DNA from: Mycoplasmatota bacterium
GTDB taxonomy: Bacteria; Bacillota_I; Bacilli_A; MAG-NZ
Direction of reading: 5' to 3'
Assembly (NCBI GenBank): GCA_018394315.1
Contig: CP074575.1
Coordinates: 1,582,615 to 1,646,614, forward strand
Length of the DNA stretch: 64,000 bases
A program made the position numbers. Positions 54,001-60,000 of the stretch are shown here, in pieces. Position 1 is the first letter of the stretch; each line of letters begins with the position of its first letter.

Positions 54001-57000
54001 TACTTTAGAAATTTTACCGTCTTCAATAAGGATATCCATTACTTTGTAATTAACTTCCGCAGCACTAATTAAATATGCATTCTTAATTAATTTCATCAAA
54101 ATTCCCCCTTGTTATAACACATATTAACACATCTAATAAAAAAGAGCCAATGGCTCTATTATTATTTGAATATTTTTTTGAATTTGTTCCAAATACTAGA
54201 ACTCATTTCATTTGTCTTTTTAAGTTTATTAAATAGTTTGCGTTGCTCTTGATCTAATTTTTCAGGTGTCACTACTACTACTAAGACATGCTGGTCTCCT
54301 TTATATCCACTAGAAACATTCTTAACACCTTTTCCTCTTAATCGGAATTTAGTTCCGGTTTGTGTACCACTAGGGACTTTAAGTTTTACATCTCCATATA
54401 TAGTTGGAACTAGAATATCAGACCCTAAAGCAGCTTGAGAAAATGTAATAGGTAATTCTAAGACAATATCATCACCTATTCTTTCTAAAATTTCGTGAGG
54501 AAGCACATTGATAGCGATATATAAGTCCCCAGCTGGACCACCATTAATCCCAGCCTCACCTTTACCTGATAGACGAATTTGTTGACCAGTATTAATTCCT
54601 TCAGGAATATTCACTTCAACTTTTTTAACTACTTCTGTATACCCGTGACCATGACAACTAGAACATTTTCTTTTTATTTCTTTACCTGATCCATTACATT
54701 CTGGGCAAGTTGTTTGTGTCCTTGTTGTGCCGAAAATAGTTTGTTGTTGTCTATAAACAGTACCAGAACCACTACATTGTGAACAAGTACTTATATCACT
54801 TTTGGAATATGCTCCACTACCATGACATACGGTACACTCTTCGTTTACTCTCAAATTTATTTTCTTCTTTACACCAAAAACGGCTTCCTCAAACGTAATA
54901 GTCATACGTTTAGATAAGTCATTTCCTCTTCTTGGTGCATTCGGATCTCTTCTTTTTCTACTTCCACCAAAGAACGAAGAAAAAATATCTTCAAATCCAC
55001 CATAATCATTGAATCCACCGAATCCACCTTGACCAAAGTTCATTCCTTCATGGCCAAATTGATCATATTGACTTCTTTTTTCTGTATCACTTAAAACGGA
55101 ATATGCTTCTTGTATTTCTTTAAATTTTTCTTCAGCATTTGATTCTGTCGATACATCTGGATGATACTTCTTGGCTAATGTCCTAAATGCTTTTTTTATT
55201 TCGCGCTCATCTGCGCTTTTACCAACACCTAGAACGTCGTAATAATCTCTCTTACTCATCGTCTCACCTCATTTTGAATAGGTATCCCTAAATAAACATT
55301 TACCTTATAAGAAAGTATCCTGAGATACTTTCTTATAAGTAATATATCTATTTAACTTCTTCAACTTCCTCAAAATCAGCATCAACAACATCATCGTTCT
55401 TTTGAGACTGTTCTTGTGAATTTGTTTGGTCTTGTTGAGCAGCTTGAGCTGCTGCTGCAGCTTTTTCATAAACTTTTGTAGCTACCGTTTGTGCTGCTTT
55501 CTCTAACGCTTCTTTTTTTGTTTTGATTTCTTCTAGGTCTTCACCTTTTAAAGCTTCTTTTAATTCCTCAGCCTTTTCATTTACTTCCTTTTTCTCTTCT
55601 TCAGTCGCTTCTTCACCAAGATCTTCTAATGACTTATTAGCTGCGAAGATTAACTGATCTGATTCATTTCTTAAATCTGCTTCTTCTTTACGTAAAGCAT
55701 CAGCTTCAGCATTTTCTTCAGCTTCTTTAACCATTCTATCAATATCTTCATCACTTAACCCAGTATCAGATTGGATAGTAATCTTTTGTTCTTTTTTAGT
55801 TCCTAAGTCTTTAGCTGTAACGTTAACTATACCGTTTGCATCAATATCGAACGTTACTTCAATTTGAGGAATTCCTCTTGGAGCAGCTGGTATATCAGTT
55901 AATTGGAATCTTCCTAATGTTTTATTATCGATTGACATTGGTCTTTCACCTTGTAAAACGTGAATATCTACAGCAGGTTGATTATCTGCAGCTGTACTAA
56001 ATACTTGGGATTTATTAGTTGGGATAGTAGTATTTCTTTCGATTAATTTAGTAAATACTCCACCTAAAGTTTCTATACCTAATGATAATGGTGTTACGTC
56101 TAGTAATAATACATCTTTTACATCTCCAGATAATACTCCCCCTTGAATTGCAGCACCCATAGCTACTACTTCATCTGGATTTACTCCTTTATTTGGTTCT
56201 TTTCCAAGTTCTTTTTTAATTGCGTCTACTACTGCTGGAATTCTTGTAGAACCACCTACTAATAATACTTGATCGATATCATTAGCAGTCATTTTTGCAT
56301 CTTTTAAAGCTTTTCTAACTGGTTCAATTGTTTTATTAACTAAATCAACAGTTAAAGCATTAAAATTAGCTCTAGTTAACATAATGTCTAAGTGCATTGG
56401 TCCTTCTGATCCTGCAGTAATATATGGCAAGTTAATTTGTGTTTGAGTTACACCAGATAATTCTTTTTTTGCTTTTTCTGCAGCATCTTTTAAACGTTGC
56501 ATAGCCATTTTATCTTTCGTTAAATCGAATCCATTAGATTTTTTGAATTCAGCAACTAACCAGTCAATGATTAAATCATCAAAATCATCTCCACCTAAAC
56601 GATTATTTCCACTTGTTGAAATAACTTCAAATGTACCCTCTGCTAGATCTAAGATGGATACATCAAATGTACCTCCACCTAAGTCAAATACTAACACAGT
56701 TTGTTCTTTATCTGTTTTATCTATTCCGTATGCTAATGCTGCAGCTGTAGGTTCATTAATAATACGTTTTACTTCTAACCCTGCAATTTTACCAGCATCT
56801 TTTGTCGCTTGTCTTTCAGCATCATTGAAGTATGCTGGAACGGTAATAACAGCTTCAGTTACTTTCTCACCTAAATAACTTTCAGCAGTAGCTTTTAAAT
56901 TTTGTAAAACCATTGCACTTATTTGTTGTGGAGTATAATCCTTACCACCAATTTTTTCAACATGTTTAGTTCCCATATGTCTTTTTATTGATTGTACTGT

Positions 57001-60000
57001 ATTTAAGTTAGTAATAGCTTGACGTTTTGCCACTTCACCAACTAAGATATCATCTCCTTTAAATGCTACAACACTCGGAGTTGTTCTTCCACCTTCTGGA
57101 TTAGCGATAACTTTAGCTTCTCCACCTTCCATAATAGATACACATGAGTTAGTTGTACCTAAATCAATTCCAATTATTTTTCCCATTATTAATTCTCCTT
57201 TTTATTTACTTTGACCATACTAGGTCTTAATACTCTTTCTTTATAAAGATAACCTTTTTGAAGCACTTCTAATACGATGTCATCATCAAATTCTTCATTA
57301 TTCTCAGTAAATACCGCTTGATGATAATTAGGATCAAACTCCTTGTGGAGAGCTTCAATTTCCTTAACGCTTTCACCTTCAATTATTTGACCTAATTGTT
57401 GTTGAATAAGGACTACTCCTTCTTTAAACTTATCAATAGAGTCAACTTCAGATTGTAAAGCTCTTTCAAGATTATCTTGCATATCAATTAATTTACTTAA
57501 GATAAATTGTTGAGCATACTTTCTATCTCTAATTCTCTCCTCATTAGAGCGACGTTTAAAGTTTTCTAACTCTGCTCTATCTCTTAACATTTTATCCTTA
57601 ATTTCTTGAGTCTCTTTTCGTAATTTAATTACATCTATCTTATCTTTTACTTCAGTTTTTGCAGCGTCAATTAACTTTTTTTCTTCATCAATTAATGTTT
57701 TTTCTTCTTCTATTTCTTTTCTAATCTTTAATAATTCATCTTCTCGTGATTTCATCTTTTTTTCTAATTCATCACGTTCTTTCCTTAATTTCTCAAACTC
57801 CTGGAGTTCAATTTTATTCTCTTTTTCTAAATCTTCTTTTACTGTCATATTTTTCTCCTTATTTATCAAAATTACTCATGTTACTAGCTATATACTCTAG
57901 TAGAGGAATAACTTTTCTATAATTCATTCTTTTTGGTCCAACAACAGCAATCGTACCTATTTCACCTGTTGGTATTTGATATGGCACAGAAATCAAAGTA
58001 CATTCTTTCATAAATTTTAACCTATTCTCTGAACCTATCTTAACTGTTACTCCAGAGCTATTTTTTTCTAATATACTGAAAATTTCTTTCTTCTCTAGGG
58101 CATTGATAAAACTTCTAACATTATCTATATCATTAAATTCAGGCTCATAAAGTAGATTATATTGACCACTTACAAAATGCTTTTCTAAAGAAAATCTACT
58201 AAAAGCATCTGCAAATGCATTAAGTAACAATTCATGGTACTGTAAATAATCTCTAAGTTTACTCTGTTTAAGATCATAAGTTAACTTATTAGATACTTGA
58301 TTAATGGGTACATTAATCAATAATTCATTTAATAACATGATGACATTTTGCATTTCTTCATAGTTTAAATCATCTATGAATAACTTACGTTTTTCAATGT
58401 GGCCTGAATCAGTAATGATAATAAGTAATGCTTCGTTTGCAGCAATTTTTACAACCTGAATCTTCTTAATTAGCCGATTCAATGAGTTAGGACCTAAAAC
58501 CATTGATGTATAGCTCGTTAAATCACTAATCATTTTAATAGTTCGGTTAATAATTTCATCATTCCCAAGCAAATAATTACCAAAGATTTCATCTACCTTA
58601 GGAAATTGACTTTTCTTCTCCTTGTTTATCTTTAGTATCTCATCAACATAGTAACGATATCCCTTTTCAGATGGGATTCGACCACTTGATGTATGAGTTT
58701 TTTCTAAATAACCCATATCTTCTAAATTTGCCATTTCATTTCTAATAGTAGCTGATGAACAAGATAACTCTTCTAGTTCAGTTAGTGTCTTAGAGCCCAC
58801 AGGTTCCGCCGTTCTAACAAATTCTTCAATAATAGCTTTTAAAATCAAGGATTTTCGTACTGATAACATAAAAATCACCTCACTAGCACTCTACAACTTC
58901 GACTGCTAACATTATATTACCAAAAAGTGTTAGCAATGTCAACAAAAGAGTGCCAGAATTTGTTAATAATAAAAAAAGCGCATTATAGCGCTATTTTAGA
59001 TAATAATTCATTTTTTTAACAATGGAAAATTTAGCTCTTCCACCATGCCCTGGATAAATAATATCATTACTCTTTACGAGTGTTTTAAGTATTTCTAGGG
59101 ATTTCATGATCATTTTTGAGTTTCCACTATATAAATCTGTACGGCCTATACTTTCTACAAATAAAGTATCTCCAGTGAACACACAGTTATCAATGAAATA
59201 ACAAGAACTTCCTTTCGAATGTCCTGGTGTATTTATAGATTTAATAGTAATGTCATTAAATTTAATTTCGTCTTCATCTTTTATTAAAATTATTTCTTTA
59301 TCTGACAAATCTACTACGTCATTAAACATATGAGCATAATTATAATTAGTATCTTCTAAGAGTATCTTATCAAACTCATTAATATAAATAGGAACATTTA
59401 AATCCTTTATACCTCCAAAATGATCATAATGACCATGAGTTAGTAATATAAATTTAAGATTATAATTCTTTATAAATTCTTTTAATTCTTGACTCATTAA
59501 TCCTGGATCAATTAAGATACAATCCTGTTTATCAATCACAACGTAAGTATTAACGCTAAAATCACTTGAAAAATATTGTGTAACTTTCTTTACTTTCATA
59601 ATAATAAAAAAAGTAACAATCAGTTACTATTTTTTCTCCTTATGTAACGTCTGTTTTTGACATCTAGGACAATATTTTTTCATCTCTATACGTTCAGGAT
59701 TGTTTTTCTTACTCTTTTTTGTCAAGTAATTCCATTCTTTACAATCTGTACATTGTAAAACAACATTTACACGCATACTCGTACCTCCAAACATCTCTGT
59801 TAAGTAATTCTACTTAACTATTATACTATATTTATTAATAAATGCAAGTATTAAAGGCTTTTTTGTGTATAATTGAAGTGAAGAAAAATTATAGAGGTGC
59901 AGAATGAAAAATAGAGAAGACACAAGAAAAATTAATGTGGGTGGAGTAATTATAGGTGGCAATAACAAAGTATCTATTCAGTCAATGACAAACACTCCCA

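Follow-up and report, generated by a model that had tools for sequence, protein, structure and literature searches.

The dnaK operon and its operators

We analysed a window of 64,000 nucleotides from contig CP074575.1, the genome of a Mycoplasmatota bacterium (designated G000); feature positions count along this window. An hrcA-grpE-dnaK-dnaJ operon lies at 54162-58869 on the minus strand, as the first-pass annotation had stated (Table 1).

Table 1. Features of the window
Feature	Position	Strand	Evidence and remarks
yqfD, stage IV sporulation gene; in-window part of the sporulation set	49055..50155	-	PF06898, E 1e-35
dnaJ, 365 aa	54162..55259	-	J, zinc-finger and C domains: PF00226, PF00684, PF01556
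dnaK (Hsp70), 612 aa	55348..57186	-	one match in G000
grpE	57189..57869	-	PF01025, E 1e-40; limits from first TTG, real start may lie further in
hrcA, heat-shock repressor	57859..58869	-	PF01628, E 9e-55; ATG at 58869, GAGGTG-type ribosome site
CIRCE operator adjoining the hrcA ribosome site	58883..58909	-	2 mismatches, genome-wide scan
Candidate sigma-A-type promoter, TTGACA-17-TAATAT with TG	58914..58942	-	10/12, joint top score in scan
Second CIRCE-like site, overlapping the -35 box	58930..58956	-	4 mismatches

CIRCE sites were called against the consensus operator sequence. The operator adjoining hrcA is the sole site in G000 with three or fewer mismatches, and two CIRCE sites at the same spacing recur in all six relatives of the order that were fetched, whose HrcA proteins are 62-68% identical to that of G000. 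Since such promoter-like sites are as numerous as the shuffle mean, position is the one feature that commends the promoter candidate.

Gene order and the upstream CIRCE are those of the HrcA/CIRCE regulon of Bacillus subtilis, in which HrcA represses groESL too. Among the groESL loci of relatives, 26 of 32 carry a CIRCE within three mismatches. Unlike B. subtilis, G000 is missing both this second target and the GroE sensor: groESL is absent, and no other site falls within three mismatches. Additional targets (lon, clp genes, hsp20) were considered and dropped after the genome-wide scan; near hsp20, hsp33, lon, clpX, clpP, tig and the clpC-like gene the best sites have 7-8 mismatches. The HrcA regulon is thus cut down to the dnaK operon, where both CIRCE sites lie, with no orphan CIRCE elsewhere. 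HrcA depends on GroE under the titration model, as outlined in passages of PMC8533110; in G000, we infer, it must work without GroE.

Absence of groEL and groES from the genome and its order

Textbooks hold the GroEL/GroES folding cage to be indispensable save in wall-less mycoplasmas. The first-pass annotation had found neither Cpn60 nor Cpn10 in six frames, and both Pfam and our own GroEL and GroES profiles bear this out. PF00118 gave no match and no candidate in the six frames of G000 (controls positive in 14/14), and PF00166 gave no match (11/14). Nor was there a group II chaperonin: PF00118 matches archaeal controls, not G000. Against 24,200 six-frame frames of at least 30 aa, searched with filters off, a profile from 31 GroELs reached a best E of 0.5. 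On the same genome a profile from six highly diverged GroELs reached 0.041 (short of inclusion) and one from 27 GroES proteins 0.93. The best tblastn matches had E 0.25 for GroEL and 0.11 for GroES, and E. coli GroEL and GroES found nothing by blastp at E≤1. As a sensitivity control, the 31-GroEL profile scored GroELs of 26% identity at E<1e-80. Neither gene, whole or as a remnant, was found in G000 with Pfam or our own profiles, and this absence is real. An attempt to pinpoint a deletion scar by synteny was abandoned: no deletion site can be named, because the genes next to groESL at the 32 loci compared in relatives are dispersed over the G000 genome.

G000 had been described as a closed genome. 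It is a single contig of 2,165,257 bases with no N (31% GC, about 2,000 genes, about 1,900 ORFs of ≥100 aa), but closure is unsupported. No overlap was seen between the termini, and the contig starts inside an integrase short of about 90 N-terminal codons compared with a 304-aa paralogue; joining end to start extends the open frame by just 15 codons. The absence of GroE is one in a single contig broken inside an integrase, and marker completeness is 93.6%. Both points leave room for an assembly artefact, with groESL in the contig-break gap or otherwise missed. Yet the break falls in a mobile region targeted to tRNA-Trp. An integron at the contig ends, suggested by repeats, was discarded, since the 99-base repeat, which overlaps tRNA-Trp, is a copy of an attachment site. 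Balanced replichores, two rRNA operons and 34 tRNA/tmRNA genes, which serve all 20 amino acids and SeC, suggest that any gap is small and lies within a mobile element. Moreover, in the seven remaining genomes of the order there is no chromosomal chaperonin either; five of them are 92-97% complete and one is a single contig. For G006 the search covered all but 1,314 bases. We consider an artefact very improbable.

Among the eight genomes of the order, one GroEL and one GroES were found, both on contig C16 of G007, a same-genus bin of 340 contigs and 55% completeness. This match had been read as either recent loss in G000 or contamination of the bin, and the evidence favours contamination. The intact groEL-groES pair lies beside portal and large terminase genes; the terminase best matches crAss-like phages, and the named hosts of the phage's relatives are Bacteroides and Flavobacterium. 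The best solved relative of this GroEL is an ancestral Fibrobacteres-Chlorobi-Bacteroidetes chaperonin, and in a tree it falls, on a long branch, outside the GroELs of the class. Most likely C16 is a mis-binned crAss-like phage contig. Recent loss within the genus was rejected: its sole GroEL is phage-borne and of Bacteroidota type, and hence gives no sign of such an event. With the contig set aside, none of the eight genomes, from five genera, has a chromosomal chaperonin, and the claim that the loss reaches the order holds. That the order's only pair is phage-borne and intact could mean that the genus obtains its chaperonin from a resident phage. Given those hosts, the type of the GroEL, the fragmented bin and the lack of any such phage gene in G000, this idea can be given almost no credence. 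A DnaK tree places the order beside Acholeplasmataceae, Anaeroplasmataceae and related DnaKs, with support of 89-93.

The remaining chaperones show no sign of an enlarged back-up set. Trigger factor, ClpX, Lon, Hsp33 and Hsp20 are present as claimed, together with ClpP and a ClpC-like ATPase; there is one DnaK and one Hsp20, and neither HtpG nor a full-length ClpB was found. A non-homologous or unrecognisably diverged protein might have taken over the chaperonin's job: many ORFs of G000 belong to no family (7 of 54 scanned, for example), and in one family of the class, f6, very diverged GroELs (26-30% identity to E. coli) occur without an adjacent groES. Those GroELs, however, reach E<1e-80 with the profile that is blank on G000, their own profile is blank too, and Mollicutes evolved no substitute, according to Clark and Tillier as cited in PMC5810989. 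We regard such a replacement as improbable.

Wall, sporulation genes and GroE clients

Classical Mollicutes lack a peptidoglycan pathway and have genomes of about 1 Mb; G000, at 2,165,257 bases, differs on both counts. The peptidoglycan gene set attributed to it is present, with MraY over the family cut-off; MurB-G, MraY, Ddl, FtsW, a PBP, FtsZ and SepF are each encoded by a full-length open frame. The label of spore-former stands as far as the genes go: Spo0A, SpoIVA, SpoIVB, SpoIIGA with two sigma factors (assigned from their place next to spoIIGA and not from a match to a specific family), SASP, YqfD and SpoVIF are encoded, and from this gene content G000 probably forms spores. Calling the organism free-living, as the first-pass annotation did, overstates the case; no sequencing run that might reveal a habitat was listed.

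These genes might instead be vestigial and the organism in effect a host-bound, mollicute-like cell, in which case our finding would add little to existing knowledge. SpoIIIAE has no match in G000 and was not found in any of the five genomes of the order searched; a DpaA-like match (E 9e-28) stays under its family cut-off, with no dpaB seen beside it; FtsA was not found, and an E. coli MreC query gave no match. Across the order, four of eight genomes lack SpoIVA and five of eight lack MraY, three of them being just 0.8-0.9 Mb, and PMC10868615 cautions that marker genes alone do not prove sporulation and describes related orders as chiefly host-associated. On the other hand, the wall and division frames of G000 are full-length, its sporulation set is broad, and spore formation is reported for Erysipelotrichales whose sets are reduced (PMC10868615). 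We think vestigial status unlikely, though it deserves to be taken seriously.

Also retained in G000 are orthologues of three GroE clients that are essential in E. coli: DapA (E 2e-69 against E. coli), Asd and MetK (E 1e-168), the first two in a dapF-asd-dapA-dapH run. DapA occurs in five of six order genomes in the class sample and MetK in 8/8, one copy broken. A search for FtsE returned generic ABC ATPases (≤39%) as top matches, and FtsX had no clear match; the E. coli client list may not apply in Bacilli, as excerpts of PMC9950496 note. The proteome is poor in Ala and rich in Ile, Lys and Asn (A 5.0, I 9.9, K 8.0, N 6.0, R 3.7%), close to Mollicutes (A 5.1, I 9.1-9.3, K 9.5-10.1%) and unlike E. 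coli (A 9.5, I 6.0, K 4.4%; PMC5810989, Table 2). Low GC predicts low GroEL dependence, according to sections of PMC4193397, and portions of PMC9950496 report that Ureaplasma MetK folds without GroE and that single changes switch dependence. A compositional signature in DapA was sought and rejected: 11 GroEL-negative and 18 GroEL-positive genomes, related and not independent, did not differ in six measures (29 of 30 loci; p 0.26-0.81). Composition is hence permissive at most, as in PMC5810989.

FtsA is reportedly a GroE client in Caulobacter, which was the basis of the idea that FtsA loss was an enabling step. The idea was dropped, since in f6 FtsA is present in 49/50 genomes and GroEL in 7/50, and in f17 FtsA in 0/23 and GroEL in 23/23.

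GroE loss across the class and its meaning

Together, these observations are in our judgement probably explained by an old loss of groES-groEL with no homologous substitute, after which clients and HrcA work GroE-free. The deletion would be ancient, dating to the stem of the order or earlier. Trigger factor and DnaK-DnaJ-GrpE would fold new chains, Hsp20 and Hsp33 would hold misfolded ones, and Lon, ClpXP and the ClpC-like ATPase would clear failures. DapA, Asd and MetK would fold without the cage, an idea made plausible by the proteome of this 31%-GC genome, which resembles that of Mollicutes in being poor in Ala and rich in Ile, Lys and Asn, and by the small number of substitutions that part dependent from independent forms. 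HrcA would fold and sense stress GroE-free, acting most probably as a thermosensor in its own right or through DnaK.

The first-pass annotation had extended the loss to a 2-Mb genome with wall and spore genes and to its order; that stands, but G000 is no exception and the pattern is wider than one order. GroEL is lacking in 225 of 401 genomes in our class sample, including 52 of 121 that bear SpoIVA (spanning 10 families) and 30 of 79 that bear DapA; some GroEL-negative genomes, near Erysipelothrix, are single contigs. In one genome, G011, CIRCE and groES are kept and groEL is internally deleted. The permissive state seems common to the whole low-GC Bacilli branch, where groESL may have undergone repeated loss and occasional lateral transfer, independently of the loss of the wall.

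Of 59 Mollicutes species 46 are GroE-negative, among them Ureaplasma and most Mycoplasma (PMC5810989). Like them, G000 has lost both genes, has low GC and the same proteome bias, and keeps clients such as MetK with no sequence signature setting them apart from GroE-positive kin. Unlike G000 (2.17 Mb, peptidoglycan pathway, Asd/DapA route, sporulation genes), these Mollicutes are wall-less, averaging 0.95 Mb and about 830 proteins (PMC5810989). Acholeplasma oculi 19L, of a genus termed saprophytic, likewise has a complete genome (1,471 genes) without GroEL/ES, and its authors propose that TF/DnaK take over (PMC4221730). It too keeps trigger factor, DnaK/J/GrpE and HrcA, and its family uses the standard genetic code; however, it is wall-less and its loss is at species level among GroE-positive Acholeplasma, whereas that of G000 spans an order that includes walled bacteria bearing spore genes. 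'Ca. Phytoplasma pruni' 16SrIII, with groEL pseudogenes (PMC13245659), is a further secondary loss in a related branch, and G011 is at a similar stage; this obligate intracellular parasite shows its remnants, and G000 is remnant-free. The orders RF39, RFN20 and ML615J-28 (PMC10868615) belong to the same Bacilli branch and mix walled or sporulating with reduced members; neither 'GroEL' nor 'chaperon' occurs in the main text of that paper.

Papers of 2018, 2023 and 2026 still name Mollicutes as the sole GroE-less bacteria, and our literature search found no report of GroE loss in walled or spore-gene-bearing relatives. We read the finding as an extension of the known Mollicutes-type loss to walled, probably sporulating cells of at least 2 Mb. 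The balance tips slightly towards a broader view, that GroE dispensability is a general, unreported trait of the low-GC Bacilli branch, predating and separate from wall loss, and that walled spore-forming cells of 2-2.4 Mb build peptidoglycan, run Asd/DapA, divide and sporulate chaperonin-free.

Surveys by cpn60 barcoding and GroEL proteotyping, which presuppose near-universal GroEL (PMC10649880), would overlook a large share of the class. Walled, spore-gene-bearing genomes without GroE uncouple chaperonin loss from wall loss and extreme genome reduction. A viable groE-null E. coli made by swapping six essential clients (DapA, Asd, MetK, FtsE, HemB, KdsA) is named as the test of GroE essentiality, and GroE-independent Ureaplasma orthologues are reported for MetK, DeoA and YcfH (both PMC9950496); G000 adds candidate GroE-independent forms of DapA and Asd. 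If the broader view is true, the DapA, Asd and MetK of these bacteria would be natural GroE-independent forms of three of the six clients, and HrcA, conserved without GroE and thus a probe of the titration model of heat-shock control, would be a GroE-independent sensor.

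Chaperonin absence and the remaining gene complement

The genome studied here (G000) is a single contig of 2,165,257 bases with 31% GC and no N. Whole-genome searches with the Pfam families Cpn60_TCP1 and Cpn10 yielded no match, with controls ringing in 14/14 and 11/14 cases, respectively. We reran the test on six-frame frames of G000, omitting the first filter of the Pfam search: the best E values were 0.5 for a 31-GroEL profile (24,200 frames), 0.93 for a 27-GroES profile and 0.041 for one built from six highly divergent GroELs; when the E. coli GroEL and GroES sequences served as queries, nothing matched at E≤1. 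The 31-GroEL profile scores diverged GroELs of 26-30% identity at E<1e-80, so a diverged copy in G000 would have been detected. The lack of Cpn60 and Cpn10 claimed by the first-pass annotation is a real feature of this genome.

The genome may not be closed as described. No terminal overlap of the contig was found, and the contig break cuts the first of two integrases amid elements integrated at tRNA-Trp: the integrase at the contig start lacks ~90 codons, and the opposite end contributes just 15. GC skew divides the contig into arms of ~1.05 and ~1.12 Mb, with the break in the longer arm; two rRNA operons and tRNAs covering all 20 amino acids are present. A small gap is possible, and is irrelevant because relatives in the same order also lack a chromosomal chaperonin.

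Other parts of the first-pass annotation were recovered, namely the hrcA-grpE-dnaK-dnaJ operon (by family matches), trigger factor, ClpX, Lon, Hsp33 and Hsp20 (one copy), to which we add ClpP. HtpG and full-length ClpB were not found in G000; the sole ClpB/C-type protein found there, a ClpC-like ATPase, falls short of the 857 aa of E. coli ClpB. The peptidoglycan genes are also there (MraY above cut-off, MurB-G, Ddl, FtsW and a PBP), together with FtsZ and SepF. Of the claim that the organism forms spores, the gene content supports a part: Spo0A, SpoIVB, SpoVIF, YqfD, SASP and SpoIIGA with two adjacent sigma factors are encoded. Evidence on the other side is that a DpaA-like gene scores below its family cut-off, that SpoIIIAE was found in none of the five order genomes searched, and that FtsA is missing. 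Sporulation of G000 is likely, judging from its genes.

FtsA was found neither in G000 nor in five order relatives of the class sample; its loss as an explanation of chaperonin loss was ruled out by comparing FtsA with GroEL across that sample. G000 has four MreB-like genes in total, and an E. coli MreC query gave no match in it.

Features of G000, its window and related genomes
Feature	Location	Remarks
hrcA-grpE-dnaK-dnaJ operon	window 54162-58869	minus strand
CIRCE (HrcA operator)	window 58883	≤3 mismatches
CIRCE-like site	window 58930	4 mismatches; over -35 box
c-di-GMP-I riboswitch	window 8541-8623	
SECIS_4 element	window 34029-34066	tRNA-SeC also in G000
Gene run	window 60958-63675	presumably type IV pilus/competence-like assembly proteins, with prepilin peptidase
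Tandem integrative elements at tRNA-Trp	G000:C1:1-8024 and contig end	two integrases; 99-base attachment-site repeat
Tandem duplication	G000:C1:376243-385866	5.1 kb; two mreB paralogues and two other genes per copy
ClpC-like ATPase, 646 aa	G000:C1:459871-461808 (L157:4872-6809)	Clp_N, AAA, lid and partial second AAA domain
Division cluster	G000:C1:1342019-1348663 (L164)	murB, divIB-like gene, ftsZ, spoIIGA; ftsA missing
Open frame	G000:C1:2048671-2063064	4,798 codons
crAss-like phage fragment	L002 (G007:C16:1-10644)	10.6 kb; groEL then groES (reversed order), adjoining large terminase and portal
groESL locus	L216 (G011:C1:218408-221665)	CIRCE and groES intact; groEL without ~residues 44-431

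The order and a phage-borne groEL

Among the eight genomes of the order, GroEL and GroES each matched in one, both on contig C16 of the same-genus MAG, G007. The closest relatives of this contig's terminase are crAss-like phages; it matches 141 records, and where these name a host it is Bacteroides or Flavobacterium. Its GroEL has an ancestral Fibrobacteres-Chlorobi-Bacteroidetes chaperonin as nearest solved structure and branches, on a long branch, outside the GroELs of the class. The contig is most likely mis-binned phage, which leaves a chromosomal chaperonin in 0/8 order genomes from five genera. Of the two readings offered for this hit, contamination is thus preferred over recent loss. 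In G006, the order's other single contig, 1,314 bases lay outside the search, shorter than groES and groEL together.

In quick single-gene DnaK trees the order forms one clade (support 98) neighboring Acholeplasmataceae, Anaeroplasmataceae and related groups (support 89-93). MraY exceeds its cut-off in three of the eight genomes (G000, G001 and G006) and SpoIVA occurs in four. Members of 0.8-0.9 Mb and one of 1.8 Mb have neither (G002-G005); members of 1.8-2.4 Mb carry both. Loss of wall and spore genes occurred within one family, later than chaperonin loss.

GroEL across the class

We evenly drew 401 genomes from the class, each at least 85% complete. GroEL matched in 176 (174 above cut-off) and not in 225; among genomes at least 90% complete the count was 172/393. 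These genomes are mostly fragmented; an isolated miss may reflect a gap in the assembly, and related genomes do not count as independent. Rates within a family of, for example, 7/50 or 0/22 are not attributable to such gaps. SpoIVA exceeded its cut-off in 121 of 399 genomes scored, 52 of them without GroEL (10 families; 34 genomes from family f6), and DapA was present in 79/399, 30 without GroEL. Thirteen genomes in eight families combine SpoIVA and DapA with a missing GroEL. All five GroEL-negative genomes chosen from family f3 have MraY, among them G086 and G130 (L200, L202), which are single contigs, 100% complete, and carry DapA as well; by DnaK, both fall with an Erysipelothrix record (support 95, quick single-gene tree). 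The complete record MO-XQ likewise gave no GroEL match (two sets of records, with matches in 2/5 and 3/5).

In a GroEL tree of the 30 top-scoring loci out of 176 genomes plus seven others, f4, f8 and f14 each form their own family clade; f3, f12, f15, f18 and f19 are intermixed, one near-identical pair spanning f12 and f18. Repeated loss with some lateral regain seems to have occurred. In f6, RF39-like to judge from the DnaK tree, GroEL was found in 7/50 genomes, all low-scoring (L209-L215, in G398, G363, G328, G258, G026, G349 and G300). The six intact copies share 26-30% identity with E. coli GroEL, versus 48-60% elsewhere, and retain ATP-site motifs with eroded apical sites; that of G349 is split over two frames. 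The fetched f6 loci contain no groES or CIRCE; murG, a clpC-like gene and cysS are among the neighboring genes. These proteins are possibly GroES-free or decaying chaperonins. The 0.9-Mb genome G011, which has SpoIVA, DapA and FtsA, carries a groEL with an internal deletion and shows chaperonin loss in progress.

HrcA, clients and the meaning of the loss

Mismatches were counted against the CIRCE consensus. Among 32 groESL loci examined in relatives, 26 have a CIRCE with ≤3 mismatches; G000 has a single such site, at the dnaK operon. Near seven other quality-control genes no site has fewer than 7 mismatches, and two further 4-mismatch sites elsewhere look like chance. The dnaK operon and both CIRCE sites are retained in all six order relatives fetched (G007 gave no DnaK match), which indicates that HrcA is still under selection, with a regulon reduced to one operon. 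In the available text of PMC8533110, B. subtilis HrcA is GroE-dependent in its activity and the Campylobacter and Helicobacter proteins sense heat directly. The HrcA of G000 must presumably function without GroE.

Six obligate E. coli clients are essential, according to the accessible part of PMC9950496; of the essential clients, DapA, Asd and MetK are retained in G000, HemB had no match there, and the best FtsE matches were generic ABC ATPases at 39% or less. Proteome composition resembles that of Mollicutes as given in Table 2 of PMC5810989, and a low GC content is a predictor of weak dependence on GroEL (PMC4193397). DapA did not differ between GroEL-negative and GroEL-positive genomes, so composition allows chaperonin loss and is no marker of it. 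This agrees with the view, in the portion of PMC5810989 consulted, that few changes in few clients are enough.

The available portions of PMC5810989, PMC9950496, PMC13245659, PMC4193397 and PMC10649880 confine the loss to Mollicutes. A survey of 4,861 genomes (PMC5406781) also lists 'unclassified bacteria' without GroE, and its supplementary table may name such genomes. Acholeplasma oculi has the same loss and a similar remaining chaperone set (PMC4221730, in part), and one Erysipelothrix rhusiopathiae strain has groEL within an island-like region (PMC4105556, in part). The main texts of PMC10868615 and PMC7301438, which treat these orders, do not mention GroEL, and the accessible parts of PMC12786226, PMC8397711 and PMC4285135 hold nothing further on the question. 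For walled or sporulating members, a search that mostly covered literature outside subscription turned up no description of such a loss. Two things make the finding less surprising: losses among mollicute relatives are what a specialist would expect, and many of these genomes carry the label Tenericutes at NCBI.

The loss in G000 is old and clean, with clients retained and the back-up not enlarged. Its proteome would need no cage, folding presumably being carried out by trigger factor and DnaK with the aid of holdases and proteases.
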